In this document: in pieces, positions 8,343 through 27,483 of the stretch
Position numbering within the stretch: the first letter of the stretch is position 1
Layout: each line of letters starts with the position of its first letter
DNA from: Candidatus Peribacter riflensis
GTDB lineage: Bacteria > Patescibacteriota > Gracilibacteria > Peribacterales > Peribacteraceae
Direction: 5' to 3'
Length of the DNA: 32,000 nt
Assembly (NCBI GenBank): GCA_001430755.1
Contig: CP013062.1
Location: 540,001 to 572,000, forward strand
The notes under the pieces: model-generated
The model's database searches: none
Seen by the model: the letters and a program-made list of their open reading frames with translations, nothing else
Told to the model about the DNA's origin: nothing
Made by a program: the position numbers and the translations under genes

Positions 8343-8423
8343 ATCTGGAACGCCCCCCACCCCGCCAGAAAAACTAAGCATTGAAATGATCCAAGTATTC
8401 CGAATACATGATAGGATCAAATT

Positions 8424-8696: not shown

Positions 8697-8717
8697 TTAC
8701 AGCACCAATTCCCTCAT

Positions 8718-9637: not shown

Positions 9638-9646
9638 CTTTCCTAT

Positions 9647-10288: not shown

Positions 10289-10455
10289 AAGAAAGGAAGA
10301 AAAGAGAAGCGGCTTGCCCTGAAGTCACCGAAGCGTAGCGGAGGTGTACTTCGGGGTATCAAGAAAAAACTTCATAGGCACAGTATGCCCATTGCCTGAG
10401 CGTTACACCAGGTTTTGGGTGAAATGGCTGGCAGGCGCATCCCCTCCTCTGCACA

Positions 10456-11253
10456 ATGCAAGTGATGAAACGGCTCCCATTGCTTCTGGCTCTTTGCCTC
10501 CTCACAGCCTGCACCGCAGAGCCGAAAGAGGCCTCGTCGATTTCTTCTGCATCCTCGGCATCGTCCCTCGACTCCGCTCGGGATGACACTGGGGTGTCAT
10601 CGGCATCTTCTCTTTCTTCTACATCCTCTATTTCTTCTCTTGCCTCTTCCTCCTCTGTTTCCTCCCCTAACCCTACCCCTACCCCTACCCCCTACACCCT
10701 ACGTCTCTCCGTCCCCTTCTCGCCCCAGGCCCCCTTTGCGCAATGGGATGCCCTGCATGAAGAGGCCTGCGAAGAGATGAGCCTGCTGCTCGTGCACCAC
10801 TTTCTCGACGGAACGGACCTAAGCCGTGAGCAGGCGGAAACGGAGCTCCTGGCTCTCATGCAATGGGAAGAGGAACACGGCTACCCACAAGATGTGACGG
10901 TTCAGGAGTTGGGAGAAATTGCGGAGAAGTATTTCGGCTACCAGTCCCGCATCATCGAGAACCCGATGGGAGAGGACTTAAAGCGGCTGCTCGCAGACGG
11001 GCACCCCGTCATCGTGCCCGCAGCGGGAAGGGACCTGAAGAATCCCTTCTTCTCGGGCGACGGTCCCTGGTACCACATGCTCGTGCTCACGGGGTATAAC
11101 GAATTCTTCTTCATCACGAACGACGTGGGGACGAAGCGCGGCGAAGGATACGTCTACCGTTTCGGCACCCTGATGAACGCCATCCACGATTGGACCGGTA
11201 TCAAAGAAAACATCCGGCAAGGGACACGAAGAGCACTGATCATCGAAAAATAA
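10456..11253 (+). CDS. lipoprotein with C39-like cysteine peptidase domain (Peptidase_C39_2-like)
   Basis: Lipobox LLTAC in the signal peptide, then a Ser-rich and PTPTPTP linker. This is followed by VPFSPQAPFAQWDALHEEACEEMSLLLV and GHPVIVP...WYHMLVLTGY. Cys and His occur in the contexts I remember for C39-like domains. Confidence 0.65.
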   Translation: MQVMKRLPLLLALCLLTACTAEPKEASSISSASSASSLDSARDDTGVSSASSLSSTSSISSLASSSSVSSPNPTPTPTPYTLRLSVPFSPQAPFAQWDALHEEACEEMSLLLVHHFLDGTDLSREQAETELLALMQWEEEHGYPQDVTVQELGEIAEKYFGYQSRIIENPMGEDLKRLLADGHPVIVPAAGRDLKNPFFSGDGPWYHMLVLTGYNEFFFITNDVGTKRGEGYVYRFGTLMNAIHDWTGIKENIRQGTRRALIIEK

Positions 11254-11264
11254 TCCGTGCCGAA

Positions 11265-11294
11265 GTGGTGGGTGACTCTGTCGGGCCCCACCAC
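11265..11294 (+). repeat. hairpin-repeat unit E (degenerate loop) 11 nt after the C39-like gene stop
   Basis: gtggtggg-tgactctgtcgggc-cccaccac. It has a perfect 8-bp stem of entirely different sequence. Its loop is related to tgagctctgtcgaa. Confidence 0.6.
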
Positions 11295-11361
11295 TGGAGG
11301 CACACCGCTCAAAGGGAAAGAGAGTACGCGAGAGAAAACCGCAGGTTTGCTTTCGCGCATA

Positions 11362-11493
11362 AACGACGTGGGAACGAAGCGCGGAGAAGACTACGTCTAC
11401 CGCTTCGCAACACTCCTCAATGCCATTCATGACTGGACAGGAGTCAAAGAGGAGATTCGTTCTGGAGCGCGACGCGTACTCATCGTGGAATAG
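11362..11493 (+). pseudogene. orphan second copy of the C39-like gene 3' end (last 43 codons)
   Basis: NDVGTKRGEDYVYRFATLLNAIHDWTGVKEEIRSGARRVLIVE aligns without gaps to NDVGTKRGEGYVYRFGTLMNAIHDWTGIKENIRQGTRRALIIE (11119-11250). The upstream part of track ORF 11257..11493 has no similarity to the parent gene. Confidence 0.6.
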
Positions 11494-11495
11494 GA

Positions 11496-11570
11496 TGTCA
11501 TGGTGAGCTCTGTCGAACCATGACATGCGCCGAATTGTCGCAGTTCGACAGTGCTCACTGTGACAATTCG
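11496..11570. repeat. two hairpin-repeat units (C: 11496-11525; D: 11531-11570, inverted)
   Basis: Unit C is tgtcatgg-tgagctctgtcgaa-ccatgaca, whose 27-nt core tgtcatggtgagctctgtcgaaccatg equals the reverse complement of 9611-9637 in unit B. Unit D is cgaattgtcgcag-ttcgacagtgctca-ctgtgacaattcg, a 13-bp stem with one G-T pair. Confidence 0.75.
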
Positions 11571-11588
11571 AATAAGGCTTTCCAAAAA

Positions 11589-11632
11589 ATTTGCGATTCG
11601 GAATCCAAATCGCAAATCTCTCAATCGCAAAT
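11589..11632. repeat. cluster of three AATCGCAAAT 10-mers (one inverted)
   Basis: atttgcgatt 11589-11598, aatcgcaaat 11608-11617, aatcgcaaat 11623-11632. The first two form an inverted repeat around cggaatcca. Confidence 0.6.
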
Positions 11633-11909
11633 TCCTTATCGTGCGATGAGCATCATCAGTGACAACAGAACAATCACCGAGATATTGATGCCCATAAATG
11701 GAACACCGGACGTTCTCTTCCTGATTGGATAACGCATAAGTGGAGAAAAATGAAAGATCGGGGGAAGCCTAGGGACGGGGGGTGAGGAGGGCAATCAACT
11801 GCCCTTGATCACCTACGGAAACAGCAGTGTGATTCTGAGCAAATTTTGTACCCGGCTTTACTCATCCGCCGTAGAAATCTACACTCCTGCTACCTCCTCT
11901 CCCGATCCT

Positions 11910-14258
11910 ATGCAAACAGGAAGACCTGATGTGCAATCACTCATTGGGAAGCCATCGAAAGATGTTCCGATGTCACTTCAGCGTGTCGCAAAAAGTATAC
12001 AGACCGGCGAGCGGATTTGGGTGGGTCCCCAGGAAAGCACGCCACTCACGACGGAGGAACAGAAGGCCTACGACCTCGCGAAGACCATCCTCTGTCACTT
12101 GGCTGTGCAAGCGCCGACCACGCACGCCTCGGGGCACCCCGGCGGCCCGCTCTCGGCCTTCACCTTCGCCTACCTGCTCTCGGCAGCACGAGACCCGCTC
12201 GTTGATCAGCCGCTCCGCATGAGTGCGGGGCATCTGTCGCTGCTCGCCTACGGCCTGCAGTGGCTCTTCGGCCGGGAGGGCAACGATGCACGCCTGGCCT
12301 CCCCGCAGACGATCATCGACACCTTTCGCACGGCTCAGGGGCTGCCCGGGCACATCGAAGCCGGCATCGGCGATATCCCCTTCGGAACAGGCCCGCTGGG
12401 CAAGGGCGTGAGCAATGCCCTTGGCGCCGCTTTCGGTCTTCACTATCTCCGCAACCTCTCCCCTAACCCTAATCCTAGTCCTATCGTGGATGTGCTGCTG
12501 GCGGATGGCGATGCGGAAGAGGGACAGGTGATGGAGGCATTCCGCCTCGCTTCGCGCCTGCAGGTCGATCACCTCATCGTCCACGGGGACTTCAACGACA
12601 TGCAGCTCTCGGGCCTGCCGTCCCAAACGGTCGCCGCGGATTTTGCGGGGATCGCCCACGCCGCAGGATGGCACGTGATCGAGGTGCAGAACGGCAATGA
12701 TCCCGAACAAGTGCATGCAGCCATCACCAAAGCAACGGCCCTCACGGGCAAGGGCCACCCCATCTTCGTCTGTTACTACACCACAATGGGACACGGCATC
12801 CCCTTCATGGAGGAAGGATCGAATACGGGCAAGAAGAACTACCACGGCTCTCCCTTAAGCAAAGAGGAGGCCACACAGGCACTCGCGCTGCTCCCGCATC
12901 TGGAAGAAACCGTGCGCGCCTACGAGCCTTTCCGCGCACGAGAGAAGAAACGCTGCGCTACGGGCAAATGTACTCTGACCGATTTGCCGCTGAAGTTCTC
13001 GGCGTCCTCGCTCAAAGGGTACAAGCGCACGATCACGGATCAGAAAGGCGCCGCCCGCAGGGATTTCGGAGCGACGCACATCAAGGCCCTCATGGCCGCG
13101 GATCCGCGCATCGTCGTGCTACACGCAGACCTCGCGGGATCGGGCGGATTTGATGAAGTGGCGAAGGAATTTCCCGACCGCGTGATCAATGTCGGGGTCG
13201 CCGAGGCGAACATGCTCATGATGGCCGCGGGCATGCGGCAGGTCGGCCTGTTTCCCGTCACCTACACGTTCGCCGCGTTCGGGACCAACGAGGCGCGGGC
13301 GAATGCGCGCCTGATCGACATCAACTGCGGCCACACGCGCTGCGGGATTCTGAATGACTGCACCCATGCGGGCCTGAGCGTGGGCGAGGATGGCGAAACC
13401 CATCAGGAACAGAACTATTTCAACCTTCCCTTCCGGCACACGCAGGTCTGGGCTCCGGCCGACTCGAACCAGGCCGCCGCGATGGCGGAAAAAGCGATGG
13501 AAATCATCGCCGAAGGGCATCAGTCCGTCTTCGTCTTCTCGCCGAGGACAGGGCACGCGCAGCTCACCGACAGCGCCGGCAAACTGATCTACGGAGCGGA
13601 CTACACGTTCGAAGGCAAAGCGGATCTCATCCGGGGATCGGATGATGTGCTGGATCAGGTGACGATCATCGCTACGGGCATCCCCGTACACCGGGCAGTG
13701 GAAGCGGCGGATCAATTGCTCGCACGCCCCGAAAAAGTGCGTGTGCGTGTGCTCAACGTGGGCAGTATCCGGCCGATCGATGCAGCGGCGGTACTGAAAG
13801 CTGCCCTCGAAACCGGACGGCTAATCGTGGCCGAAGATCACAACAGCGAAGGGGGTCTCGCCGCGCAGGTGGCGGACATCATTGCCGATTTCGCCCTCCC
13901 CTGCTCTCTCCGGCGCCTCGGCTTGAACCAGTACTTCCCGTCCGCCAAGGCGGAAGATTTGGAACTCATGGCGGGGTTGGATACCGAGAGCATCCTCAAT
14001 GCCGTCTTAGACGAAATTCATGCCGAAGTGCGCGGCGGCGAAGACGCCTTCGTAAGCTCTCTCTTCGAAATGGCGCACCATTTGCGCTTCAGCCGCTTTC
14101 GGGCAACGGCCCTCCCCTTTGTCGAGAAACTCCTCTCGGAGGAAGGCTACCTGGACTTGCTCCGTACGCACTTCGCCCGGCGCGCCTGCCCGGCGGGCAG
14201 ACTCCCGAAGAATGATCAGCTACTGGAACGGCTGCAGGAAGAAACGCAGGCTGTCTGA
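11910..14258 (+). CDS. tkt: transketolase, single-chain, with C-terminal extension (start uncertain: TTG 11805, ATG 11910 or ATG 11970)
   Basis: Thiamine-diphosphate motifs SGHPGGPLS and LLADGDAEEGQVMEA. Pyrimidine-binding region INVGVAEANMLMMAAG. C-terminal domain VRVLNVGSIRPID. About 80 further residues follow the last conserved block. Confidence 0.9.
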   Translation: MQTGRPDVQSLIGKPSKDVPMSLQRVAKSIQTGERIWVGPQESTPLTTEEQKAYDLAKTILCHLAVQAPTTHASGHPGGPLSAFTFAYLLSAARDPLVDQPLRMSAGHLSLLAYGLQWLFGREGNDARLASPQTIIDTFRTAQGLPGHIEAGIGDIPFGTGPLGKGVSNALGAAFGLHYLRNLSPNPNPSPIVDVLLADGDAEEGQVMEAFRLASRLQVDHLIVHGDFNDMQLSGLPSQTVAADFAGIAHAAGWHVIEVQNGNDPEQVHAAITKATALTGKGHPIFVCYYTTMGHGIPFMEEGSNTGKKNYHGSPLSKEEATQALALLPHLEETVRAYEPFRAREKKRCATGKCTLTDLPLKFSASSLKGYKRTITDQKGAARRDFGATHIKALMAADPRIVVLHADLAGSGGFDEVAKEFPDRVINVGVAEANMLMMAAGMRQVGLFPVTYTFAAFGTNEARANARLIDINCGHTRCGILNDCTHAGLSVGEDGETHQEQNYFNLPFRHTQVWAPADSNQAAAMAEKAMEIIAEGHQSVFVFSPRTGHAQLTDSAGKLIYGADYTFEGKADLIRGSDDVLDQVTIIATGIPVHRAVEAADQLLARPEKVRVRVLNVGSIRPIDAAAVLKAALETGRLIVAEDHNSEGGLAAQVADIIADFALPCSLRRLGLNQYFPSAKAEDLELMAGLDTESILNAVLDEIHAEVRGGEDAFVSSLFEMAHHLRFSRFRATALPFVEKLLSEEGYLDLLRTHFARRACPAGRLPKNDQLLERLQEETQAV

Positions 14259-14267
14259 CACCTTGGA

Positions 14268-14284
14268 ATGGCGGAAGCGGGAGG
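14268..14284. repeat. 17-nt direct repeat of the tRNA-Ser(UGA) 3' end (att-like)
   Basis: atggcggaagcgggagg at 14268-14284 is identical to 14387-14403. The latter comprises the 16 3'-terminal nt of the tRNA plus 1 flanking nt. Confidence 0.7.
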
Positions 14285-14387
14285 CCGTCTCCGTTCGGCT
14301 TCACTTTGTTCCGCCCGAACTTCGCCGTGCCTATCTGCATTTTCTGGCTCATAGCCAATCACGGCGTAGTCCGCAGACGAAGCCGGA

Positions 14388-14477
14388 TGGCGGAAGCGGG
14401 AGGATTCGAACCTCCGAGACCCTTGCGGGTCTACCTGTTTTCAAGACAGGCCCGATCGACCACTCTGGCACGCTTCC
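14388..14477 (-). tRNA. tRNA-Ser (anticodon UGA), CCA encoded
   Basis: Reverse complement GGAAGCG-TG-CCAGAGTGGTCGATCGGG-CCTGT-CT-TGA-AA-ACAGG-(long variable arm TAGACCCGCAAGGGTCTC)-GGAGG-TTCGAAT-CCTCC-CGCTTCC-G-CCA. Confidence 0.9.
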
Positions 14478-14592
14478 GTAACGGAATAGTACCAGAAAAG
14501 ACGCGATGCGCATGCCGTTACGCAGGACCATCGCAAAAGCTCCGCAACATGCAGCACACGTACAGATCTGCCATAAAAGTTCATCAGGATCA

Positions 14593-14622
14593 TGGACAGT
14601 TAGACACATGTTCTGCTATAAT
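14593..14622 (+). promoter_or_regulatory. promoter candidate for the first giant gene
   Basis: TGGACA (14593-14598), 18-nt spacer containing an extended -10 TGC, TATAAT (14617-14622), 25 nt upstream of the ATG at 14648. Confidence 0.45.
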
Positions 14623-14647
14623 GACCTGATACAAACACATACTCCTG

Positions 14648-17600
14648 ATGACAGTATCTTCCTCATTCAAACGCGGCGATATCGAGCAAATTCTGAAGAA
14701 AGCAGACATCTTCCATCTGAGCGCGGAGGCTCGTGTACGTCTCAACTGCTTGCTGTACTACTTCACGCACGGCAGGAACGCTTCCGAGACCGCGTGCCAT
14801 TTCGGCATTGCACGTGCAACGTTCTACAACTGGCTGAAGAAAATTAATCTCCATGATCTCTGTGCACTCGAAAATTGCTCAAAGGCCCCGAAGCACGTAC
14901 CGCAACCGATAACGGACGAGCGAACGGTGGATCTGATCCGCAGGCATCGTATGAGCGATCCTCTCCTCGGAAAGAAGAAGCTCAGCAAACACCTGCGCTC
15001 CGCGCATGGCATCTCTCTCTCTGCATCCACGGTCGGGCGCACCATCAACCGACACGGCTTCTACTTCGCCGATACGCCTGCGCACCGCGCAAAGCGTGAC
15101 GAACGCAGGCTGGATGGATGGCGGAAGGCAGTGGTCCTCGTGAGCACCGCCACAGGCGCCTCCCTCCTCGCCGATGTTCCGTTCGCTCACGCACTGGAAG
15201 GTTCAATCTATGAGCTGCATCCGACATCCCCCGATCAAACTGGTGATGGAGTCCTCGAGGGATCGGCGTTCACCCTGCAGGAAGGGGGCATAACAGACAC
15301 AGCACAACCGCTCCAGGGTTCCGTTTTCACAATCACGATACCGGCAGCCGCTTCGTCTTCCTCTCTGTCGTCGTCTTCCCCATCCGCAACACCGGCTGGC
15401 GGTCCTGCGACGGGCGGAGGACGCCGCACGATCCCCGTCGTGCAATTGCCGTCCTCTCCCTCCTCACCGGCTTCTGCCCCCTCTCCCCCCTCCACACCCT
15501 CTCCACTCAAATTCGGAGAATCTCTCTATGCAGTCCCCTCCCCGACGCTTACGGGGACAGCGAAGACCGGCACTCCCGCGAAAGTGACCGACAGCAAGAC
15601 AGGATCTGCCGTGCCTCCTCCCACCCATACCGACCAAACCGGTTCCTACCGCGAAGCAGCCCCGCCGCTGCCACCTGTCGTCGTTACGCCTTCGTTTGCA
15701 GAAACATGGCTGCCCAGCGTGATCTCTGCAGCAGTCGTATTGACAGTGCTCGCAGGTCTCATCGGCCGTACATGGCTGTACCACGTCATCACCAACGGGT
15801 TGGGATGGCGCTCGTTGCGAACCGTTGCGACGCTCTCGCGCAAGTCTTTCTTCGTGTCTCTGATGGGCGCCTCACTCCTCTTCGCCCTCCTCTGGAACAT
15901 CACATCGGCCAGCGCCGCAACGACCGTGCCGCTCACGCGCTGGTATCAGGGACATCTGCTCAACGCGGATGGAAGCGCGGTCACGACAGCCGTGACCATC
16001 CGGTTCAGCGAATGGAAGAGCGCCGATTTCACCGCCGCTGACCTCACGGCGACCGGCTCGATCAACACATCGGCAACCCACTACGTGAACTGGCAGGAGG
16101 AACACACACTGACACCCACAAGCGACGGATCCTTTGCGGTCGAACTGGGATCCGTCAACGCCCTGCCCGACCTGAGCGCGCTGCCCCCCAGCACGCTGAC
16201 GAGCCTCTACCTGCAAGTGGATGTGAAGGTATCGGGCGCGGCAGACTCGACGTACGACCTGCTCGATTCCAACACGAGCAGTGCAACGACAGACAGAACC
16301 TCGATTCTCTCTCTGCCCTTCGCACGCACTGCCGATCTCTTGGACCAGCGCGACACCGGCACGGCAAGCGGCTCCATCCCCGTGCTCACGACGGGTGGCG
16401 CGCTCTCGCTCGACGGAGACCTGACCATCAATGCGGATAATGAAGCAAGTGACGCCACCCTCACCTTCGGCAACAACCTCCTCAACGAAACGCTCAAGTT
16501 CTCGGCAACTCTCAACCGCTTCGACTTCAGTGATGATGTGTCGATCGGCGGAGACCTGGAGGTGACGGGGACGATGTCGGGAGCATTCCTGCAGATCACA
16601 GGGACAGGGGCATCCCCCCTCATCAAAACTCAGGGGGGGAATATCGGCATCGGCACCGCCACACCAGCAGCGCAGCTGGATGTCACCATCTCCATCGGAC
16701 TCAATGGCGAAACCATCGAACATTGGGACGAGGTGCCGCTGGATGATCCCTACAAACTCAAAGACTGGTTTGATACCACGCAGGGAGCAGGACGCATCAG
16801 CGGCGGCAGAATCACCGCCAACGCCGACGGAACCGTCACGGTCCTCGCGGGCTCGGGCCTCGTGCACATCACCGAGGCAACCGTGCAGGAAAACCCCCTC
16901 GACTGTTCCACATGCGGCCAGATCTCGGATCTCGAATACATCACATGGACCGGCACCTCCGCCCTCGTCCTCACGAACAACGATTACAACTACATCTACT
17001 ATGACTACGAAACGGCCAGCGTGCGCGCCACGACGGATTTCAACGCGATCTCCTTCACGCGGGAGTTCACGCTGGGACGCGCGTACCGCAGGGACACTGA
17101 AGTCATCGTGCGTCTCTGTGGCACGAACCTCTGGAACTTCAACCGCAGAGTGCAGCTCTTCGGCGAGGAGGTGTACCCCATCGTGCGGGCAACCGGCATG
17201 GCGATCTCAGAAGTGGGGACACGGGGACTGGCCGTCACTGCGGGTGTGCTCTGGGCGGAACTGGTCAACCGCTTCGTCACCGATGCCTTCTCGACGGCCA
17301 CCGGCACCTTCTCGACATGGCACAGGGACGGGAGCGGCGGCTGGACGGAGACCACGGGCCAGACACAACTGTCCAATACATCCTACGACGACGGAGATGG
17401 CGTGCTGGGAACTCTGACCAACGGACGGTACGGCATCCACTTCATCTACGTGCTGCACGATTCCACGGTGCACTCGGTCTACGGCCAGGTACAGAACTAC
17501 ACCCAACTCCAGGCAGAGGCGGCCCAGCCTCCGGCATCCATTCCGGACCTGCTGGCTTCGTATGCAACACTCATCGGCAAAGTGATCATCCAGAAGAACG

Positions 17601-18013
17601 GCGCCAACTTCGCCGAAATACAGTCCGCCTTTGAACAGACGTTCGCGGGCGCGGGAACCGTCATCCACAATGACACCTCGGGATTGCAGGGTGGAGTGGC
17701 AGCAGAGTACTACCACCTGACCTCGAGCGAATACACGGGAACAGGATCGGGGGTGTTCGTACGCGCCACCTCTCCGACATTCGGCGGTTCCGTCACCCTG
17801 CCGCTCGGCATCTGGAACTCCACCGGCCGCGTGGGCATTGGTACAGCAACACCAGAGACAGAGCTGGAAGTCATCGGCACCCTGTCGGGTTCCTCCATCG
17901 TCAACTCCAGTGGAGGGGGCTACGTAGGCGCTGCAGCCTGTTACCTCGCCAACGGCACGCTCGGCCATTGCACCAGTGCCGATGGGTCATCCTGCGGGTG
18001 CACGGCGAATTAA
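14648..18013 (+). CDS. giant surface protein 1: IS481/IS3-type HTH module, 3 TM segments, tail-fibre-like ectodomain, Cys-rich C-terminus
   Basis: 1121 aa. Residues 1-145 carry HTH ASETACHFGIARATFYNWLKK, then NCSKAPKH, then STVGRTINRHGF. TM segments lie at ~160-180, ~355-375 and ~401-423, and ASA|ATTVPL follows residue 423. The ectodomain carries GNIGIGTATPAAQLDV and GRVGIGTATPETELEV and ends CYLANGTLGHCTSADGSSCGCTAN. Confidence 0.85.
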   Translation: MTVSSSFKRGDIEQILKKADIFHLSAEARVRLNCLLYYFTHGRNASETACHFGIARATFYNWLKKINLHDLCALENCSKAPKHVPQPITDERTVDLIRRHRMSDPLLGKKKLSKHLRSAHGISLSASTVGRTINRHGFYFADTPAHRAKRDERRLDGWRKAVVLVSTATGASLLADVPFAHALEGSIYELHPTSPDQTGDGVLEGSAFTLQEGGITDTAQPLQGSVFTITIPAAASSSSLSSSSPSATPAGGPATGGGRRTIPVVQLPSSPSSPASAPSPPSTPSPLKFGESLYAVPSPTLTGTAKTGTPAKVTDSKTGSAVPPPTHTDQTGSYREAAPPLPPVVVTPSFAETWLPSVISAAVVLTVLAGLIGRTWLYHVITNGLGWRSLRTVATLSRKSFFVSLMGASLLFALLWNITSASAATTVPLTRWYQGHLLNADGSAVTTAVTIRFSEWKSADFTAADLTATGSINTSATHYVNWQEEHTLTPTSDGSFAVELGSVNALPDLSALPPSTLTSLYLQVDVKVSGAADSTYDLLDSNTSSATTDRTSILSLPFARTADLLDQRDTGTASGSIPVLTTGGALSLDGDLTINADNEASDATLTFGNNLLNETLKFSATLNRFDFSDDVSIGGDLEVTGTMSGAFLQITGTGASPLIKTQGGNIGIGTATPAAQLDVTISIGLNGETIEHWDEVPLDDPYKLKDWFDTTQGAGRISGGRITANADGTVTVLAGSGLVHITEATVQENPLDCSTCGQISDLEYITWTGTSALVLTNNDYNYIYYDYETASVRATTDFNAISFTREFTLGRAYRRDTEVIVRLCGTNLWNFNRRVQLFGEEVYPIVRATGMAISEVGTRGLAVTAGVLWAELVNRFVTDAFSTATGTFSTWHRDGSGGWTETTGQTQLSNTSYDDGDGVLGTLTNGRYGIHFIYVLHDSTVHSVYGQVQNYTQLQAEAAQPPASIPDLLASYATLIGKVIIQKNGANFAEIQSAFEQTFAGAGTVIHNDTSGLQGGVAAEYYHLTSSEYTGTGSGVFVRATSPTFGGSVTLPLGIWNSTGRVGIGTATPETELEVIGTLSGSSIVNSSGGGYVGAAACYLANGTLGHCTSADGSSCGCTAN
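15911..16540 (+). repeat. shared block, copy 1 (collinear with 18887-19516)
   Basis: Constant offset of 2976 nt with no indels. The blocks include a 50-nt identical run (16088-16137 = 19064-19113). Most differences I inspected are at third codon positions. Confidence 0.8.
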
Positions 18014-18238
18014 CGTCGCCGCACGGGGCATAACCCCCTAGTGCGACCCCGCCCACGCTACGGCGCACGTGAGCATCACGGCACGACCTCCCTCCCCTCC
18101 CAAGCGGAGAGGAGCTATGCGCGTACTTGCATGTTGCGGGAGGTACGTACTGCAGAGAAGGGCCCGATGACGTGGTCGGGAACTCACGAATACGAAAAGT
18201 CCACAGAGATCCGAAAGATCCGAAAGTCCAGATACATC

Positions 18239-18267
18239 TTGTAAAATCCTCGATTTTGCTGTACGAT
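18239..18267 (+). promoter_or_regulatory. weak promoter candidate for the second giant gene
   Basis: TTGTAA (18239-18244), 17-nt spacer, TACGAT (18262-18267), within the 309-nt spacer between the two giant genes. Confidence 0.3.
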
Positions 18268-18322
18268 AACACGAAAACCCGACATCTCCACCAAAAACTC
18301 ACCACACCCACCACCCCACAGC

Positions 18323-21300
18323 GTGCTGCGCCCGGAATCACGCCCCCAGAGGGAAGACATCGAGAAGCTTCTCCATGAAGCGGAGCGCCTCCAGTTGAGC
18401 GGCGGCGTGCAGCAGAAACTCCAGTGGTTTCTCTACGCCCTCGACCACGACAATGATCCGAAGAGTGTCAGCGAAGAGTTCAATATTTCCTCTTCGACAT
18501 TCCGCCGCTGGCTCAAGCGTTTTGATCCGGATGATATCACCTCCCTCGAAGAGAAATCGCGGAGACCCCATACGGTCCGTGAGCCCGACATCCTCCCGGA
18601 GGTCGTCGAGCTGATCCGCCAGTACCGCGCGCAGTACCCGACGATGGGCAAAGAGCGCATTCACGAGGCCCTGCAGAGAGAACACGACATCGTTGTCTCT
18701 CCTTCGAGCATCGGTCGTATCATTCAACGCGAACGTTTCTTCTTCGCAGATACCTTTTCGCACCTGAAGAAACTCAATCCCAATCCTCCGCCTGCATCAT
18801 CTTCGACTTCCCAACCGGGTGTATCCGCACTCCTCCTGCTCTTCTGCGCCGCCACCGCGGTCTTCCTCTCTGGAACGCCGCAGGCGAGCGCCGCAACGAC
18901 TGTTCCGCTCACGCGCTGGTATCAGGGCCACCTGCTGAACAGCGACGGCAGCGCCGTCACCACAGCCATCACCATCCGGTTCAGCGAGTGGAAGAGCGCG
19001 GACTTCACCGCCAGTGACCTCACCGCGACCGGCTCGATCAATACATCGGCAACCCACTACGTAAACTGGCAGGAGGAACACACACTGACACCCACAAGCG
19101 ACGGATCCTTTGCAGTCGAACTCGGCTCCATCACGGCGCTTCCGGATCTGGCCACGCTCCCGCCCGCAACGCTCCAGAACATGTACCTGCAGGTGGAAGT
19201 GAAGACCTCGGGTGCGGCAGATTCCACCTATGACCTCCTGGATAGCAACACGAGCGATACGGCCATCGACCGCACATCGATCCTGTCGCTCCCCTTCGCC
19301 CGCAATGCAGACCTCCTCGATCAGCGCGATACGGGCACCGCGAGCGGTTCCATTCCCGTGCTCACGAACGGAGGCGCGCTCTCCCTCGACGGTGATCTCA
19401 CCATCAATGCCGACAACGCAGCAGCGGATGCTGTGCTGACCTTCGGCAACGCGATCCTCGCCGAAACACTCAGGTTCTCGACGACGAACAGCCGCTTCGA
19501 ATTCAGTGATGATGTCTACGTCGAAGGAACACTCTCGACCTCCGGCGCACTCGTGATTGCACCAAGACCGGGGACGGAGACGGGCACTACCCTCATCGTC
19601 GATACCAAGGGCTTAGTCTACGATGCAACGAACAAGAGGGTGGGTATCGGGACGGCGACGCCGGAGGCCGCACTGGATCTTACGCTCTCCTCCGCAACAG
19701 AAACGGGCATGATCATCAAAGGCGCTGCCTCCCAAACGACCAACCTGCAGGAATGGCAGGCGAATGACGGAACGGTGGTAGGCTCAATCACTCCGCACGG
19801 CGACCTGACGCTGACCGGGACTAACAGCCCCGGAGGAAGATTCATTCAGATTTTCCCGTGGAACCAGCACGACAATAATTCAGCCAAGATCGCTATCTGG
19901 TCGAGCAATTTGAATTATTCAACGTTGCAGGGCACTTCACTGACGTTCAACAACAATAATATCGGATCTGCAGGGGTCGGACTCGGAAACGGATCCAATC
20001 TTTCGGTGATTGATGCTTCAGGTAACCTGACCACGGCGAATGCCGGCGGACTTGCAATCGGCGCAGCCGGAACCGCAACACCCTTTGGCACCCCGCCTTC
20101 AAATGGAGCAATCATCAGCGGTAACGTCGGCATCGGCACCACCGCACCCGAAACCAAGCTCGAAGTCGTCGGAACGATGAGCGGTACGAAACTCAAGATC
20201 ACCGGAACGGGATCCCTCAGCGATCTTACGTTCCCGTCCATGCAGCTCGGCACATCCACCTATTCCACGGTGCGAGACTTCATGAATTCTTTCGGCTCCA
20301 CCGGCCGCAAATCAGGGGGCGTCATTGCTGATGCCGGATCCTCGACCGTGGCGGTGACGGGAGGAACGGGTTTCATCAAGGCAACGGACGATGACGACGC
20401 CCCGTTGCTGTTCTTCGACTTCCCCGCCCCGGCCAACATCAGCATCCCCGCCGGTTCCACACGGTACATCGGCGTCGAGTACAACAGCGGCTCCCCACAG
20501 GTCGTCGCCCGGACGTCATGGAACTGGAACCTGGATACCGAGTTCCCCTTGGGCGCGGTCATCAACGAAAACGTGGGCGGCATCGACGAGCTGTACATCG
20601 AAAACAATCCCTGGTGGGTGACGGATGGCACAACGAACATCATCGAAGCCATCAGAAGCCTCGGGCTCATTCGCAGGGACCAGACAACGGGAGGCCTCAT
20701 GCTCTCTGTCACGGGAACCCGCAACATCGCTGTCAGCGCAGGAACGCTGTGGAGCAACTTAAATGAGTTCGACTTGGCTGCCGTCGATACCTCCGCGGCG
20801 GGAACAATAGAGTACTACTGGTACAAAGCGGGAACCGGCTGGCAAACATCGGATGTTTCGCAGTACTCAGTGACGCAGTGGAACGATGTCACGCAGGCGG
20901 CACTGCAAACCATGGAGAACAACAAGTACGGGAACGTCTGGGTGTACACGGAAGTGGTCAATGACAACCCCTCGGTGGCCTTGCTGTACCCGCAAGCCCA
21001 GTATAACACCGCTGCGGAGGCAGAGGCCACGAATGCCCCCTCCAACATCCCGACGCACATTACCGAAATGGGAATGCTGATCGGACGGATCATCATCAAG
21101 AAAGGGGTGGATACCCCGGTTGCGGTCGAATCGGCATTCGGAACAACCTTCAGCGCCAGTGTCACCACGGACCACGGCAATCTGGCGGGCCTCACGGACG
21201 ACGACCACACGCAGTACCTCCTCTTAACTGGTAGAAGTGGACAGCGCGTGAATGACTCCGTGGAATTCACCGGAACGGCCTCCGGACGCATCTTAAGCTT

Positions 21301-23182
21301 CGGCACGCGACTGACGGGATCAGGCAATGTCTCCATCCGCACCCTCACGGACTCCACCACCGCCTTCCAGGTGCTCGATGCTGACGGAGGTAATCCCGTC
21401 TTCAACATCGATACGGACAATGAGCGCGTGGGCATCGGCACCACCGCGCCCGAAACCGCACTCGAAGTCGTGGGCACCGCCTCGGGCAACTACATTTTCG
21501 GGCAGCAGGGACTGGGCTCCTCGGGGGCGCTCGCAGTCCTCGGGAACATCTATAACAGAGCGGATAATGCGAAGCATTACTTCGGCGCGGGCAACGACGC
21601 CTCCATTACCTACGACGGAACGAATATGTTGATAAACCCCAAGGAAGTGGGGACGGGGGAGTTGAGGGTTTCGGGCAACGTGAACATCGGCTCAACAACC
21701 ACAGCAAACATGGCGCAGGTTGCAGAGCTGAATGTAAGAGGGACGGATGCGGGCATTTTGATTGACGGCAATAATTCCAACAACTGGCTCAAACTCCAAT
21801 ATTCAACTGGCGGGGGCCATGTTCTCTTCACAACCCCAGCAGTCGAGTGGGTCTACCGTCTTAACCAAGCAAGTCTTGACGCTGATTTCGTGATTGGCAG
21901 GTACGCAGCCAATATCGTTGAGATGCGAGGCAGGTACAACTACAACGCTGGGGTAAGCCACAGCCTTCTTTTGACAGGTGGGCGATGGAATAATGCCCCC
22001 GCTGGGAATCTCTACCTTCGTGGAGGACAGGGGCTTGGAGTCGGTGCGCCTGGTGTCATTAAGCTTCAATCACCCGACGGAACGCAGGATATTCTTACGA
22101 CCAGCGCAACAGACAATCACCTTCATTCTCCAGACAACATCAAGCACCTATACGGCACAGGGGACGACGCCTCCATTACCTATGACGGGACGAACATGGT
22201 GATCAATCCGAAGGAAGTGGGAAGTGGATACCTGAAAATCCCCGGCACCGCCTCGGGCAATTACATCTTCGGGCAGCAGGGGCTCGGCGCATCGGGTGCC
22301 GTGGTGATCAAAAAACTCTCCGGCACGGGCACGGGCAACATCTTCATCGTCGATACCAAGGGACTCGTCTACGATGCGACGAACAAAAGAGTGGGGATTG
22401 GGACGGCAAGTCCGGAGTATACACTCGACGTGAACGGAGGGGCGGCTGTGAGCAATCTCCAAATGGGAGATGTGGGGTACGGGGCGTTCTTCCCGGGCCT
22501 GACGTACAAGGGAAACGCAGCGGGAGGCTACGCGATGTTCACCACAAACGGAGGGGCCTACACCGTCCTGAATAAGAGCACCGCCGACGGACACATCGGA
22601 TTCAGGGTGAACAACGTGGACAAGATGGTCGTCGATGAAAACGGCAACGTGGGCATCGGCACAATCACTCCCGAAAACAGGCTCGAAGTCGTCGGCTCCA
22701 TGTCCGGCCGCACGCTGCAGGTGACGGGCACGGGGGCGGCACCGTTGATCTACACGGATACGACAACGGGAAGAGTGGGCATTGGCACAGCAACACCGGG
22801 CTACGTGCTCGATGTGCAGCACGCCACCGACAAGATCAACTCCAAGAACGGCTACCTGACGGACGGAGCCGACTACGCCGAGTACTTCCCGAATGAAGAG
22901 AATATTCTGGAAGGTTCGCTCGTCGGCATCAACATGGAAACGGGCAAGGCGCGCCGGTACCGCTTCGGCGACGAATTCATCGGCATCGCATCGGATGGAC
23001 ACGGATTCGTGGGCAACGGGAAGAGGGGCATCGAAGATAACCCGAAGTATGCGCTCGTGGGGCTGCTCGGCCAGCTCACCGTTCGTCCGGAGGAAGTGAC
23101 GATCAGGGGACGCCTGGTCTTTACCCGGGACGGCAAACGGATCGGTCTCTTGCTCGAGAACGGAAAAGTGCTGCTGCGGTGA
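18323..23182 (+). CDS. giant surface protein 2: IS481/IS3-type HTH module, single signal-anchor, tail-fibre-like ectodomain, Peptidase_G2-like C-terminal domain (GTG start)
   Basis: 1619 aa. HTH VSEEFNISSSTFRRWLKR, then EKSRRPH, then SSIGRIIQRERF. The hydrophobic segment GVSALLLLFCAATAVFLSGTPQASA|ATTVPL follows. There are six xxVGIGTxxPExxL(E/D)V motifs. The C-terminus reads GYLTDGADYAEYFPNEENILEGSLVGINMETGKARRYRFGDEFIGIAS. Confidence 0.85.
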   Translation: MLRPESRPQREDIEKLLHEAERLQLSGGVQQKLQWFLYALDHDNDPKSVSEEFNISSSTFRRWLKRFDPDDITSLEEKSRRPHTVREPDILPEVVELIRQYRAQYPTMGKERIHEALQREHDIVVSPSSIGRIIQRERFFFADTFSHLKKLNPNPPPASSSTSQPGVSALLLLFCAATAVFLSGTPQASAATTVPLTRWYQGHLLNSDGSAVTTAITIRFSEWKSADFTASDLTATGSINTSATHYVNWQEEHTLTPTSDGSFAVELGSITALPDLATLPPATLQNMYLQVEVKTSGAADSTYDLLDSNTSDTAIDRTSILSLPFARNADLLDQRDTGTASGSIPVLTNGGALSLDGDLTINADNAAADAVLTFGNAILAETLRFSTTNSRFEFSDDVYVEGTLSTSGALVIAPRPGTETGTTLIVDTKGLVYDATNKRVGIGTATPEAALDLTLSSATETGMIIKGAASQTTNLQEWQANDGTVVGSITPHGDLTLTGTNSPGGRFIQIFPWNQHDNNSAKIAIWSSNLNYSTLQGTSLTFNNNNIGSAGVGLGNGSNLSVIDASGNLTTANAGGLAIGAAGTATPFGTPPSNGAIISGNVGIGTTAPETKLEVVGTMSGTKLKITGTGSLSDLTFPSMQLGTSTYSTVRDFMNSFGSTGRKSGGVIADAGSSTVAVTGGTGFIKATDDDDAPLLFFDFPAPANISIPAGSTRYIGVEYNSGSPQVVARTSWNWNLDTEFPLGAVINENVGGIDELYIENNPWWVTDGTTNIIEAIRSLGLIRRDQTTGGLMLSVTGTRNIAVSAGTLWSNLNEFDLAAVDTSAAGTIEYYWYKAGTGWQTSDVSQYSVTQWNDVTQAALQTMENNKYGNVWVYTEVVNDNPSVALLYPQAQYNTAAEAEATNAPSNIPTHITEMGMLIGRIIIKKGVDTPVAVESAFGTTFSASVTTDHGNLAGLTDDDHTQYLLLTGRSGQRVNDSVEFTGTASGRILSFGTRLTGSGNVSIRTLTDSTTAFQVLDADGGNPVFNIDTDNERVGIGTTAPETALEVVGTASGNYIFGQQGLGSSGALAVLGNIYNRADNAKHYFGAGNDASITYDGTNMLINPKEVGTGELRVSGNVNIGSTTTANMAQVAELNVRGTDAGILIDGNNSNNWLKLQYSTGGGHVLFTTPAVEWVYRLNQASLDADFVIGRYAANIVEMRGRYNYNAGVSHSLLLTGGRWNNAPAGNLYLRGGQGLGVGAPGVIKLQSPDGTQDILTTSATDNHLHSPDNIKHLYGTGDDASITYDGTNMVINPKEVGSGYLKIPGTASGNYIFGQQGLGASGAVVIKKLSGTGTGNIFIVDTKGLVYDATNKRVGIGTASPEYTLDVNGGAAVSNLQMGDVGYGAFFPGLTYKGNAAGGYAMFTTNGGAYTVLNKSTADGHIGFRVNNVDKMVVDENGNVGIGTITPENRLEVVGSMSGRTLQVTGTGAAPLIYTDTTTGRVGIGTATPGYVLDVQHATDKINSKNGYLTDGADYAEYFPNEENILEGSLVGINMETGKARRYRFGDEFIGIASDGHGFVGNGKRGIEDNPKYALVGLLGQLTVRPEEVTIRGRLVFTRDGKRIGLLLENGKVLLR
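18887..19516 (+). repeat. shared block, copy 2 (collinear with 15911-16540)
   Basis: See copy 1. It encodes ATTVPLTRWYQGHLLN...LTINADN...LTFGN...FSDDV in both genes. Confidence 0.8.
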
Positions 23183-23261: not shown

Positions 23262-24302
23262 ATGGTGCCTCCGACGCTCCTCACCAAGACGTGCACGTCT
23301 GTTTTCGTGCTCTCTCTGCTTTTGCCCTCAATGGCATCAGCAGCAGAAACCGCCGCGTTCAAAGACATCCCATCGGGTTCGCCCGTGGCGGAAGCTGCAG
23401 AGTATCTGCGCAGTGTCGACATCCTGAGTGGATATCCCGACGGTACCTTCCGTCCCGACCAGAAGGTGAACCGCGCAGAGGCGATCAAAGTCATCATCGG
23501 TCCCCTGCTCAAGAAAGAAGCGCTGCAGGAGCTCATCTCGACCCCATTCACGGATATCAAAACCGGAGAGTGGTACCTGCCCTACGTGGAGGCAGCCCGT
23601 CAGAACTCCATTGTGGATGGCCCGCCCATGAGGGCCGCATTCAACGGCACGAAGCCCGTGACCAAAATGGAATTCATCAAGATGCTCCTGCTCGCCTATC
23701 GCATTGACCCCAGCTCTTATAGCGAGATCCGCCTGCCGCTCTCACAGGATGCCACCGATCCAGCCGCGTGGTACTACCCCTACTTGCGCTACGCCATCAC
23801 CGCATCCATGACCGCAGTGACGGACAAGGGCACCTTCGATCCGGGGCGGGAACTCACGCGCGGCGACACTGCACTCATTCTCTACCGCTTTCTCATGTAC
23901 CGATCGGGCAAGCGCACGCAGGCCCTCCTCTCGGAGGCGGAGAGCGAGATCCTCGTCGTCCTGAGCAGCCTGGAGCAGAACAATCCCGAACAGGCCGAGT
24001 ACGCCTCGGCCCGCGCCCTGCTCGCTGCCCGCGGCGCGAATGCAGGAACCCCCAATCAGCCTCTCGTACAAGGCGCGCTCAAGATCACCGAGGCATTCCG
24101 TGCGATTGTGCGCGCGTACCGCGCCGGCTTGAGCCAGCAGTTTGATGAGACCATCCGCCTGTGCGGGGATGCCTGGAATCTGGCCACCCGCGGCAAGGAG
24201 TTGAGTCCCGGCTTGGCGGACCTGAGCGATCAGGTGCAGGCACTCGCCAAGAATCTCGCCGACAGTGCGAGGGCGGCGAAGGCCGGACCCGCCACCCCAT
24301 GA
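23262..24302 (+). CDS. SLH (S-layer homology) domain protein
   Basis: Signal peptide ending SMASA|AE. Two SLH-like units are present: FKDIPSGSPVAEAAEYLRSVDILSGYPDGTFRPDQKVNRAEAIKVI and FTDIKTGEWYLPYVEAARQNSIVDG...TKPVTKMEFIKMLL. The C-terminal half is helical. Confidence 0.75.
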   Translation: MVPPTLLTKTCTSVFVLSLLLPSMASAAETAAFKDIPSGSPVAEAAEYLRSVDILSGYPDGTFRPDQKVNRAEAIKVIIGPLLKKEALQELISTPFTDIKTGEWYLPYVEAARQNSIVDGPPMRAAFNGTKPVTKMEFIKMLLLAYRIDPSSYSEIRLPLSQDATDPAAWYYPYLRYAITASMTAVTDKGTFDPGRELTRGDTALILYRFLMYRSGKRTQALLSEAESEILVVLSSLEQNNPEQAEYASARALLAARGANAGTPNQPLVQGALKITEAFRAIVRAYRAGLSQQFDETIRLCGDAWNLATRGKELSPGLADLSDQVQALAKNLADSARAAKAGPATP

Positions 24303-26147: not shown

Positions 26148-26867
26148 ATGCCGAGGAAACCTGCCCCGTCCGCCGTGACCGCCGGAATTGATGAAGCCGG
26201 CAGGGGCGCTCTGGCAGGCCCGGTCGTTGCGGGAGCCTGCATCCTGCCCAAGGATATTCCCCTGCCCCGCTTCATCCGCGACAGCAAGGTACTCACGCCC
26301 GACGTGCGCGAAGAAGCCTTCGCATGGATCGCGGCACACTGTGCGTACGGAGCCGGTATTGTGGAGGCAGATTTCATCGATCTCCATGGCATCCTTCCGG
26401 CAACCGAGCGGGCGATGCAGCAGGCCGTCGCGGAGCTCGCGCAACGGTGCCGCCCCACGTACCTCCTGGTCGACGGCCGCGACAAATTCTGGTTCGACTA
26501 TCCGCACACCGCCATCATCGACGGGGATGCGCTGGAACCGTGCATCTCGGCCGCCTCGATCGTGGCGAAGGTCACGCGCGACCGGCTGATGGTCGACCTC
26601 GCGAAAGCGTTTCCGCACTACGGATTGGAGGGGCACAAAGGGTACGGAACACCGGAACACTTCACTGCCATCAGAACCCTTGGCCCATGCCGGATCCACC
26701 GCTGTACCTTCCTCTCCTCCATCGCCACCACAGCCCTACCCCCAGCAGGAACAGCGGAAGCGAATACAGCTGACCCTTTGAGAGCACGAGCCACGGGAGC
26801 ACAAGAGTCGGGCTGTCTGGCACGCGCACAAACTCCACGCAAAAGCGGAGCGCGCCGTACAGGATGA
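26148..26867 (+). CDS. rnhB: ribonuclease HII with ~55-aa C-terminal tail
   Basis: GIDEAGRGALAGPVV, DSKVLT, SAASIVAKVTRD, GYGT..H and HRCTF are RNase HII motifs. The ORF continues about 55 codons past the usual end and overlaps lgt on the opposite strand. Confidence 0.85.
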   Translation: MPRKPAPSAVTAGIDEAGRGALAGPVVAGACILPKDIPLPRFIRDSKVLTPDVREEAFAWIAAHCAYGAGIVEADFIDLHGILPATERAMQQAVAELAQRCRPTYLLVDGRDKFWFDYPHTAIIDGDALEPCISAASIVAKVTRDRLMVDLAKAFPHYGLEGHKGYGTPEHFTAIRTLGPCRIHRCTFLSSIATTALPPAGTAEANTADPLRARATGAQESGCLARAQTPRKSGARRTG

Positions 26868-27483
26868 GAAAGAGTGCGAAGGTCCCGCCCGGACGCAGCA
26901 TCCTCGTCCGGTGCAGGTGCCACAGGCACAGAAATGCGATCAGCAGATCCTTCAGGAAAGCGTAGAGCTGCACCGGATGACGCAATCCCTCGACCCCCGG
27001 GATGGCCATGCCAAACGGAAGCGTCGTCACCGTGCCGTAGAGCTCCAGATTAATGAAGTTCCCCACCCTGCCGAGTGCAAGGCCCGCTGCAGCGGGAATG
27101 ACCACAAGATCGAGGAGGCTTGAGAGCGGAATGTGCTGCCGGCGGGCGGCGAACCAGAGCGCGATCCCCACACCGATGAACCCGCCGTGCGACGACATGC
27201 CTCCCCGCCACACGGCCAGAATTTCGAAGGGGTGCGCTGCGTAGGTAAGCGGGTGGTAGAAGAGCACGAAGCCGAGCCTGCCTCCGATGAGCACGCCGAG
27301 GATGCCGGCCGTCAGAAGATCGGCCCAGGCTTCTGAAGAGAGCGCGAGGCCGCGCTGCTTCTGGATGCGCGGAAGGATCAGAAAAGCCAGGAGAAACGCG
27401 GCGACGTAGAGCAACCCGTACCAGTGGATCGGAAAGCCGAACAGGGCGACAGCCACCGTGCGGGAAGGGAAGAAGGTGAGCAC
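26671..27483 (-). CDS. lgt: phosphatidylglycerol-prolipoprotein diacylglyceryl transferase
   Basis: HWYGLLYVAAF, GGRLGFVLFY, WRGGMSSHGGFIG and GRVGNFINLELYG are Lgt signatures. Confidence 0.9.
   Translation of the reverse strand: MLTFFPSRTVAVALFGFPIHWYGLLYVAAFLLAFLILPRIQKQRGLALSSEAWADLLTAGILGVLIGGRLGFVLFYHPLTYAAHPFEILAVWRGGMSSHGGFIGVGIALWFAARRQHIPLSSLLDLVVIPAAAGLALGRVGNFINLELYGTVTTLPFGMAIPGVEGLRHPVQLYAFLKDLLIAFLCLWHLHRTRMLRPGGTFALFLILYGALRFCVEFVRVPDSPTLVLPWLVLSKGQLYSLPLFLLGVGLWWRWRRGRYSGGSGMGQGF

Follow-up and report, generated by a model that had tools for sequence, protein, structure and literature searches.

We analyzed a 32,000-nucleotide (nt) stretch of the Candidatus Peribacter riflensis genome (contig CP013062.1 of assembly GCA_001430755.1, positions 540,001 to 572,000; here, the window). 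This tiny, uncultured bacterium belongs to the Peregrinibacteria, within the Candidate Phyla Radiation. Two adjacent genes on its forward strand, spanning window positions 14648 to 23182, each run from a helix-turn-helix (HTH) module through a hydrophobic part ending in an AxA site into a giant fiber-like ectodomain. We consider it probable that both are fused ("polyprotein") versions of a surface-fiber operon that is conserved among Peribacteria. Gene 1 (14648 to 18013, + strand; ATG start; 1121 amino acids, aa) has the full form, in which the HTH module is followed by a first predicted signal peptide, a stalk, a second transmembrane segment (TM2), a loop, a second predicted signal peptide, and the fiber. 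Gene 2 (18323 to 23182, +; GTG start; 1619 aa) has a short form consisting of HTH module, predicted signal peptide, and fiber. Both open reading frames (ORFs) had been singled out in an earlier sequence-only reading, and they exist exactly at the coordinates, starts, and lengths reported there. The plan described in that reading, a DDE-less HTH of IS481 type joined through a hydrophobic segment with an AxA site to a tail-fiber-like ectodomain, was likewise borne out.

High-GC DNA yields many long spurious ORFs, and in relatives the HTH and the fiber are truly separate genes. Both facts would suit an assembly, sequencing, or annotation artifact in which a hidden stop codon or frameshift parts the HTH ORF from the fiber ORF. 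Independent assemblies contain the exact 1619-aa product of gene 2 on at least 24 contigs, six of which exceed 1 Mb; it is therefore not an artifact. A near-identical gene 1 protein occurs in four deposited Ca. Peribacter riflensis accessions (including ALM09909) and on 23 contigs, with the deposited proteins annotated as "integrase catalytic subunit" or hypothetical. The frame is also kept in both paralogues and in more than 30 other lineages, and gene 2 offers no alternative start codon. With uninterrupted, identical ORFs across independent assemblies and the fusion recurring in related lineages, the fusion is real; the artifact explanation is effectively refuted, and we give it almost no credence.

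An HTH module of transposase type

In both proteins, aa ~31 to 134 match the Pfam families HTH_28 and HTH_32 (for gene 2, HTH_32 scores 43.9 bits, over the Pfam cutoff); the modules as a whole occupy aa 1 to 155 (14648 to 15112 in gene 1 and 18323 to 18787 in gene 2, both +). The NCBIfam profile of the IS481 transposase (NF033577) is covered only in its N-terminal part, positions 2 to 120 of 284, with E values of 1.5e-14 and 2e-17, and the scores of 54 and 64 bits do not reach the full-length cutoff of 224 bits. Neither Pfam nor NCBIfam profiles detected an rve/DDE domain anywhere in either protein. These searches agree with what had been supposed from the sequence alone, namely, N termini of IS481/IS3 type with no catalytic domain behind them. 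The two modules are 35% identical over 142 aa.

An AlphaFold2 (AF2) model of gene 2 aa 1 to 200, built from a 52-sequence alignment, had a predicted local distance difference test (pLDDT) score above 90 at aa 10 to 150. The closest folds were the paired domains of Pax5 and Pax6 (probability 1.0) and the DNA-binding domains of TnsB, MuA, and SETMAR/Mos1, so that the predicted structure is that of a bipartite transposase-type HTH. At a greater distance, P0203 (33% identity) is a true insertion sequence (IS) with an overlapping rve_3 ORF after the HTH. Given the paired/transposase-type fold and this true IS, the module is therefore best read as a domesticated OrfA-like DNA-binding protein that originated from an IS481-type transposase.

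The module is under purifying selection in fused genes. Between two related fused loci (L001 and L002), the ratio of nonsynonymous to synonymous substitution rates (dN/dS) was 0.13 for the HTH, 0.14 for the N-terminal base domain of the fiber, 0.16 for the rest of the fiber, and 0.30 for the leader; the constraint on the HTH equals that on the fiber.

Signal peptide-like fusion junctions and the stalk

Gene 2 encodes one hydrophobic segment (aa 163 to 188), and gene 1 encodes three (aa ~161 to 180, 350 to 381, and 400 to 421). In both proteins, A-S-A stands immediately ahead of the shared ATTVPLTRWYQGHLL, and the DNA similarity between the two genes (80%) begins ~6 codons ahead of the A-S-A site. 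The hydrophobic segment with AxA directly before shared ectodomain sequence had been noted earlier, as had the lack of an internal start in gene 2, where a codon-by-codon check found no in-frame ATG, GTG, or TTG between codons 108 and 287.

The gene 2 junction (aa 163 to 190, ...FLSGTPQASA↓ATTVP, with the arrow at the predicted cleavage site; 18809 to 18892, +) combines a 16-residue h-region, G/P at −7/−6, and A-S-A at −3 to −1, which on its sequence would make it a textbook cleavable signal peptide. Unfused fibers of relatives have ordinary signal peptides ending in AxA↓(A/E)TTxP (e.g., ...VISAGA↓ATTGP in P0001), and the second internal signal peptide of gene 1 (aa 400 to 423, ...LLWNITSASA↓ATTVP; 15845 to 15916, +) is the counterpart of these N-terminal ones. 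The first internal signal peptide of gene 1 (aa 161 to 182, ...DVPFAHA↓LEGSIYEL; 15128 to 15193, +) is a hydrophobic segment in which AxA is followed by the (E/Q)(S/G)xS(F/Y)xL start of the stalk. The first TM segment has this form, AxA and then the mature start of the stalk, in 51 of 76 relatives with a long leader, and the final TM segment of the sorted relatives ends in AxA↓ATT nearly everywhere. We read each fusion junction as the signal peptide of a once-separate downstream gene. The "signal-anchor" proposed for these genes is the counterpart of the ordinary cleavable signal peptide in unfused fibers.

Between its two internal signal peptides, gene 1 carries the stalk module (aa 183 to 399; 15194 to 15844, +), with SxSFxL-type repeats, an S/P/T-rich stretch, a GGGRR motif, TM2 (aa 353 to 377), and a basic loop. 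The same module exists as a free gene at the related locus L012 (8549 to 9568; 339 aa), where it has a predicted signal peptide (...FAIA↓AESTSFRL), GGGGRR, and a C-terminal TM segment with a basic tail. No Pfam or NCBIfam family matched the stalk module. Genes for a sortase (27598 to 28392, −) and for the lipoprotein diacylglyceryl transferase Lgt (26671 to 27483, −) lie 4 to 5 kb downstream of the fiber genes; because no LPxTG motif was seen in stalk or fiber, a link between them is not evident.

The same parts occur fused and free in relatives

We searched for relatives exhaustively with HMMER, using gene 2 aa 1 to 350, which returned 1249 relatives, and sorted the top 150 by architecture; a word-indexed search with aa 1 to 300 had given two matches and overlooked obvious relatives. 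Both halves are present in ~34 representatives that follow the plan of gene 1: HTH, first TM segment, SxSFxL-type repeats, S/P-rich stretch, GGGRR, TM2, basic loop, third TM segment, AxA↓(A/E)TTxP, and fiber. The short form (HTH, TM segment, AxA, fiber) is limited to gene 2 and P0032. A further ~45 representatives have a fiber with a gene 1-type long leader and no HTH, and ~40 have a fiber with a plain signal peptide ending in AxA↓ATT (e.g., P0001). The remaining class consists of 27 HTH-only proteins, ~11 of which are soluble (180 to 220 aa) and ~16 of which have one TM segment near aa 200 to 235. Matches to both the HTH and the fiber base domain were present in ~35 cluster representatives. 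The fusion first noticed in the window is thereby found again in related genomes.

An HTH profile identified 14 loci among species-representative genomes, all in Peribacteria/Peregrinibacteria bins (one bears a Kaiserbacteria label and is identical in sequence to L004). Six of these (five distinct) have the HTH fused to the fiber, six have it as a separate gene, and two are cut off. At the six split loci, the HTH is a gene of ~180 to 200 aa directly upstream of the fiber gene on the same strand, and in five the two genes are 1 to 3 nt apart or overlap by 4 nt. L012 has an apparent 1-kb gap that is in fact the stalk gene, which begins 2 nt past the HTH stop codon and overlaps the fiber start by 4 nt, giving three separate, coupled genes (HTH, 7953 to 8546; stalk, 8549 to 9568; fiber, 9565 to 11142). 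Read-through or recoding of an in-frame stop codon at the split loci was rejected, as the HTH and fiber frames differ in most of them.

The three parts accordingly occur in nearly every state. All three are free in L012; the HTH is free and the stalk is fused to the fiber in L006, L008, L009, and L011; HTH and fiber are separate, with no stalk, in L005; HTH and stalk are fused in P0083 and P0113; all three are fused in gene 1 and the ~34 representatives; and HTH is fused to fiber without the stalk in gene 2 and P0032. The HTH-fiber fusion is optional within the family, and the stalk is likewise free or fused. In P0194, a free HTH with its own C-terminal TM segment overlaps by 4 nt a gene for a 3069-aa protein with a base domain after AHA↓AT, and the link between the HTH family and the fiber class therefore reaches beyond immediate relatives.

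Three loci have an extra fiber-like gene without an HTH right after the first fiber gene (L009, 10868 to 12349; L010, 10998 to 12620; L005, 8130 to 10328). Tandem fiber genes, such as genes 1 and 2, are therefore common.

Ectodomains resembling Bdellovibrio fibers

The mosaic adhesive trimer (MAT) fibers of Bdellovibrio bacteriovorus start, after the signal peptide, with a conserved ~130-aa beta-rich domain that is presumed to bind an unknown cell surface element, and further along they have capping-loop motifs, exchangeable tips, and, optionally, a chaperone that cleaves itself (Caulton et al. 2024, PMC10769870). Both ectodomains in the window begin in a similar way, with a beta-rich base domain at aa 424 to 583 in gene 1 (15917 to 16396, +; family profile A4) and aa 191 to 350 in gene 2 (18893 to 19372, +), 75% identical to each other. 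Of 33 base domains, 24 match the NCBIfam profile Bdello_MAT_N (NF053851), with a best E value of 1.2e-6 and all scores under the 60-bit cutoff; no other family was common to more than one member. The AF2 model of the gene 2 domain is a predicted beta-sandwich with pLDDT of 76 to 91 over ~110 residues, from a shallow alignment (the profile search gave five matches). Foldseek found no significant match to this model in PDB, only generic beta-sandwiches, which fits the published statement that the N-domain of the MATs lacks structural homologues (PMC10769870), and a search of PDB with profile A4 matched nothing.

Beyond the base domain, the ectodomains share a region of ~450 aa (29% identity; E = 1e-29). 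The eight VGIGT motifs counted in the sequence-only reading are all canonical VGIGTxxP copies, two in gene 1 (aa 666 and 1062, in a shaft and globular module at 16397 to 18010, +) and six in gene 2, with one degenerate copy in addition; the VGIGT region at gene 2 aa 1425 to 1473 aligns to the Bdellovibrio MAT fiber structure 8ojn. Part of the shared region, the globular module at gene 2 aa 645 to 946 (20255 to 21160, +), matches PHROG 5668 "tail fiber" (2e-40) and annotated phage tail-fiber genes, such as that of Stenotrophomonas phage DLP_6 (33% identity; 6e-29). The C terminus of gene 2 (22820 to 23179, +), which has no equivalent in gene 1, resembles an intramolecular chaperone of the Peptidase_G2/phi29 gp12 type. 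The Peptidase_G2-like end had also been proposed from the sequence alone, and the resemblance holds as a weak one: PF11962 scores 21.7 bits (1.4e-4), under its cutoff of 25, and there are matches to the phi29 gp12 preneck appendage (PDB 3gqh; 2.8e-4) and to the chaperone domain (D4) of the Dpo31 tailspike (1.3e-4).

Only the middle module of gene 2 has phage homologues. The sequence-only reading had assigned phage tail-fiber parts to both ectodomains; the fibers as a whole are closer to Bdellovibrio MATs than to phage fibers. We view the ectodomains as MAT-like cell surface fibers built partly of phage-fiber modules, remote relatives of the MATs and possible members of that family, and we infer an adhesive role for them.

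Two observations bear on the diversity of these fibers. The Cys-rich C-terminal tail of gene 1 (17941 to 18010; ...CYLANGTLGHCTSADGSSCGCTAN) is shared with P0005 (...CIKTTGEVGICSSAVDADGGCTCN), a protein of unrelated length, and is lacking in gene 2; it may be a small disulfide-knotted or metal-binding tip. On the metagenome contig L017, a gene at 7738 to 14741, preceded by an HTH-TM gene, encodes a 3069-aa protein with Laminin_G_3 and FG-GAP repeats beyond the base domain, a domain that is therefore joined to very different giant ectodomains.

A candidate operator at the promoters

Upstream of gene 2, a putative promoter has a −35 element TTGTAA (18239 to 18244) and a −10 element TACGAT (18262 to 18267) separated by a 17-nt spacer. 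The −35 element is abutted by a repeat block that we regard as a candidate operator (18207 to 18244, +), consisting of two copies of AGATCCGAA (18207 to 18224), AGTCC, and AGATACATC (18230 to 18238). The same block is found at L001, L002, and L013, whose HTH regions are only 56 to 68% identical to the query at the protein level. Gene 1 has a promoter-like site 26 nt ahead of its ATG (14593 to 14622, +; TGGACA-18-TATAAT with TG, 11 of 12 consensus matches), with CAGATCTG and AGATC boxes upstream. The candidate operator boxes read AGATCCGAA or CAGATACATC. The frequency of AGATC/GATCT is 2.0 per 150 nt at positions −180 to −30 of 15 HTH genes and 0.34 in GC-matched windows consisting mostly of coding DNA (a 6-fold difference).

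A cytoplasmic module made together with a giant fiber might also have lost DNA binding and now serve assembly, targeting, or quality control during fiber export, e.g., by keeping the growing polypeptide at the membrane or by attracting a partner. The tight translational coupling of the HTH to the fiber gene, its repeated fusion to the fiber signal peptide, the TM segment that some HTH proteins have of their own, and the net charge of −1 of the gene 2 module would all fit such a role. Against it, the strongest conservation of the HTH falls in both recognition-helix regions (F53, T59, W63, and R66; S128, G131, and R132), the fold matches DNA-bound paired and transposase domains, the gene 1 module has a net charge of +14, and the repeat block is conserved at the promoter. 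A role other than DNA binding is on balance improbable.

A model for the fused operon

We propose an operon of three parts. The first would be a regulator derived from OrfA, or the N-terminal DNA-binding part of an IS481-type transposase; the second, a stalk protein with a signal peptide, SxSFxL repeats, an S/P-rich stretch, GGGRR, and a C-terminal TM segment; and the third, a MAT-like adhesive fiber with a signal peptide, base domain, VGIGT-capped shaft, and variable phage-like tip and chaperone modules. In the present genome, the stop codons between the parts would have been lost, and the former signal peptides would therefore have become internal hydrophobic segments. The HTH would fold in the cytoplasm while each hydrophobic segment is inserted via Sec, and type I signal peptidase would cut at AHA↓LEGS (gene 1 only) and ASA↓ATTVP (both genes). 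The products would be those of the split loci: a surface fiber, a stalk anchored by its C-terminal TM segment, and the HTH. The base domain of the fiber would dock on an envelope element, probably the stalk or the syntenic SLH protein described below, to judge by synteny and fusion. The HTH would remain tethered to the cytoplasmic side of the membrane by the uncleaved helix of the signal peptide, like the natural HTH-TM relatives, and, being made 1:1 with the exported fiber, would bind the AGATC-type repeats beside the −35 element; autoregulation of the operon through these boxes is its most likely function. Signal-peptidase cleavage of membrane-tethered regulators with a cytoplasmic N-domain has a precedent in RsiV and RsiP (PMC10202637). 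As a whole, we think that this scheme is probably right.

Several points weigh against the scheme. The operator is a candidate in the sense of a conserved, enriched motif, to which the HTH would bind, and its enrichment is measured against a background of mostly coding DNA; L005, L006, L009, and L017 have no AGATC in the scored region; and the upstream region of gene 1 aligns poorly to that of gene 2. DNA binding, as opposed to another cytoplasmic role, is what the features of the HTH suggest rather than display, and the similarity of the base domains to Bdello_MAT_N stays below threshold. Finally, an AxA site after an N-terminal extension of 160 to 400 aa might be used inefficiently or not at all.

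Were the site not used, the intact protein could act as a one-component sensor like ToxR or CadC, the fiber sensing host contact and signaling through the TM segment to the HTH, for example by clustering of three HTHs on three direct repeats by a fiber trimer. Gene 2 does have a ToxR-like topology, with a cytoplasmic HTH, a single TM segment, and a large outside domain; there are three AGATC-type boxes at its promoter; MAT-type fibers are trimers (PMC10769870); and membrane-anchored HTH-only relatives exist. However, roughly half of the related loci encode the HTH as a separate, soluble protein that is not physically joined to the fiber; the family as a whole therefore does not depend on covalent signaling. 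The junction also has the makeup of a canonical cleavable signal peptide conserved with unfused fibers, and gene 1 encodes two AxA sites along with its three hydrophobic segments. We consider an uncleaved sensor unlikely. Of the hypotheses raised in the sequence-only reading, the contact-sensing membrane-tethered factor is accordingly disfavored, and the evidence favors the other two, an extended signal peptide with a regulatory role once the fiber has been exported and episymbiont attachment fibers with a domesticated IS N terminus.

More tentatively, and with less confidence than in the operon itself, we suggest a bacterial polyprotein logic in which a transcription regulator is made as an N-terminal addition to the signal peptide of the protein under its control. 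One membrane-held HTH would then remain for every fiber exported, possibly to be freed later by intramembrane proteolysis. If this is true, the cell would count, or feed back on, fiber export.

A fixed chromosomal locus

The other genes in the window are housekeeping genes, encoding pyruvate kinase, RsmH, a ROK kinase, transaldolase, transketolase, a Mur ligase, RNase HII, Lgt, sortase, and TsaD. Directly downstream of gene 2 is a gene for an SLH-domain protein (23262 to 24302, +; Pfam SLH, 1.1e-23), a conserved neighbor and a candidate cell wall dock for the fiber. A homologue adjoins every related locus except L007, a 1.6-kb fragment, and L012 and L013 retain the whole block of SLH, flavokinase, MurE, RNase HII, and Lgt genes. 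In most relatives, the SLH and HTH genes are oriented divergently; in the window and in L003 and L004, the fiber unit is inverted relative to the SLH-MurE block. In this inverted arrangement, the conserved promoter block has traveled with the HTH gene and not with the SLH gene.

The IS481-type HTH, database names such as "transposase" and "integrase catalytic subunit," the tRNA-Ser gene adjoining gene 1, and the phage-like modules in the fiber could all suggest a mobile element or its wreck, IS481-like or a prophage tail-fiber cassette, with the fiber as a passenger and the fusion as functionless read-through. Against this stand the missing DDE/rve domain, the constant SLH neighbor and the MurE-RNase HII-Lgt block, the dN/dS of 0.13 in fused HTHs, and more than 30 divergent fused lineages. 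No convincing terminal inverted or att-like repeats bound genes 1 and 2, no relatives of the HTH or the base domain were found on viral contigs, and the HTH had no match in a phage genome collection. A mobile element or read-through fusion is effectively refuted and deserves very little weight. A phage or prophage origin was likewise rejected on the housekeeping neighbors and the lack of relatives on viral contigs or among phage genomes; the fiber locus is chromosomal, syntenic, and not phage-borne.

Some further features of the window were noted. An exact 15-nt direct repeat, TGGCGGAAGCGGGAG, occurs at 14269 to 14283, just past the transketolase stop codon, and at 14388 to 14402, where it is the 3′ end of tRNA-Ser(TGA) (14388 to 14477, −); the copies are 119 nt apart. 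The repeat resembles what a past integration at the tRNA would leave behind, and the ~105-nt interval contains no fiber genes. A 13/15 match of the tRNA 3′ end within the SLH gene is probably due to chance. The gene at 3762 to 5753 (−) encodes 663 aa with eight copies of the DUF4215 cysteine-rich repeat (E = 1.9e-66), and its product is one of the large, exported, Cys-rich proteins that the Peribacter genome paper points out. Between the transaldolase and transketolase genes, a gene at 10456 to 11253 (+) encodes a 265-aa protein with a weak match to Peptidase_C39_2 (1.3e-5).

Significance and comparison with known systems

Bacteria of the Candidate Phyla Radiation (CPR) are thought to live attached to other microbes, and the means of attachment and its regulation are largely unknown. 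Our findings point to a conserved attachment-fiber locus in Peribacteria, with fibers related to the prey recognition fibers of Bdellovibrio, and to a domesticated transposase DNA-binding domain as its regulator with a candidate operator. They also make the stalk and SLH proteins concrete candidates for the "surface element" bound by MAT-type base domains. If the model is true, a transposase DNA-binding module has been domesticated as a dedicated regulator of host attachment fibers across a CPR class, and the operon states ranging from three genes to one are ready-made natural controls.

The literature collection that we searched, an incomplete one, contained nothing that describes the locus, an HTH-fiber fusion, or polyproteins in bacteria whose parts are joined by internal signal peptides, and nothing relevant on Peregrinibacteria adhesins; the Ca. 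Peribacter genome paper does not mention the proteins of genes 1 and 2. This agrees with the original impression that the fusion is not a described family. MAT-like fibers, domesticated transposase HTHs, membrane-tethered regulators, and site-1 cleavage by signal peptidase are all known ingredients; what is new is their combination and the natural series of fusions and fissions. The series suggests that internal signal peptides can serve as polyprotein junctions in bacteria, a role that our literature search turned up for viruses only, in a bunyavirus review.

With IS481/IS3 transposases and their OrfA proteins, the module shares the bipartite HTH (HTH_28 plus HTH_32, with motifs in the same order) and the small HTH gene coupled to or overlapping the next gene, as OrfA is with OrfB, and the distant relative P0203 retains a downstream rve_3. 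Unlike in these elements, there is no catalytic domain, there are no inverted repeats, the chromosomal position is fixed, and the downstream partner is a secreted fiber.

The fibers described here resemble the Bdellovibrio MATs (PMC10769870) in having a signal peptide followed by a predicted beta-rich base domain, a shaft with VGIGTxxPxxxLxV capping-loop motifs, phage-derived swappable tips, and a putative, optional C-terminal self-cleaving chaperone, and in belonging to a cell that lives on other cells. The present fibers, in contrast, come from another phylum with a Gram-positive-like envelope, their base-domain similarity is subthreshold, and the putative chaperone is of the phi29 gp12/Peptidase_G2 type instead of S74. 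Moreover, neither an HTH gene nor a stalk protein nor an SLH gene has been described in linkage or fusion with MAT genes.

Among membrane-tethered regulators, the anti-sigma factors RsiV and RsiP (PMC10202637) have the same order of parts, which here is given by sequence features: a cytoplasmic regulatory N-domain, one TM segment, a signal peptidase site outside, and an extracellular domain. Their cleavage parts the outer portion from a membrane-held regulator stub, as we propose for genes 1 and 2. They differ in having an anti-sigma domain, which Pfam did not detect in either of our proteins, and a ligand sensor, whereas here the cytoplasmic part is a predicted DNA-binding HTH and the outside part is a structural fiber of 1000 to 1400 aa. 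In the two anti-sigma factors, cleavage is ligand gated and is followed up by a site-2 protease. ToxR and CadC share with gene 2 a cytoplasmic DNA-binding domain, a single TM segment, and an outside domain; unlike their OmpR-type winged helix, the HTH here is paired-like, the TM segment carries a putative cleavage site, and the link to the outside domain is optional.

Viral polyproteins contain internal signal peptides that are cut by host signal peptidase, and some long viral signal peptides have a second function. The genes described here are alike in that one ORF would yield products split at internal signal sequences, with an N-terminal fragment that has a function of its own; unlike the viral examples, they are bacterial and reside on the chromosome.

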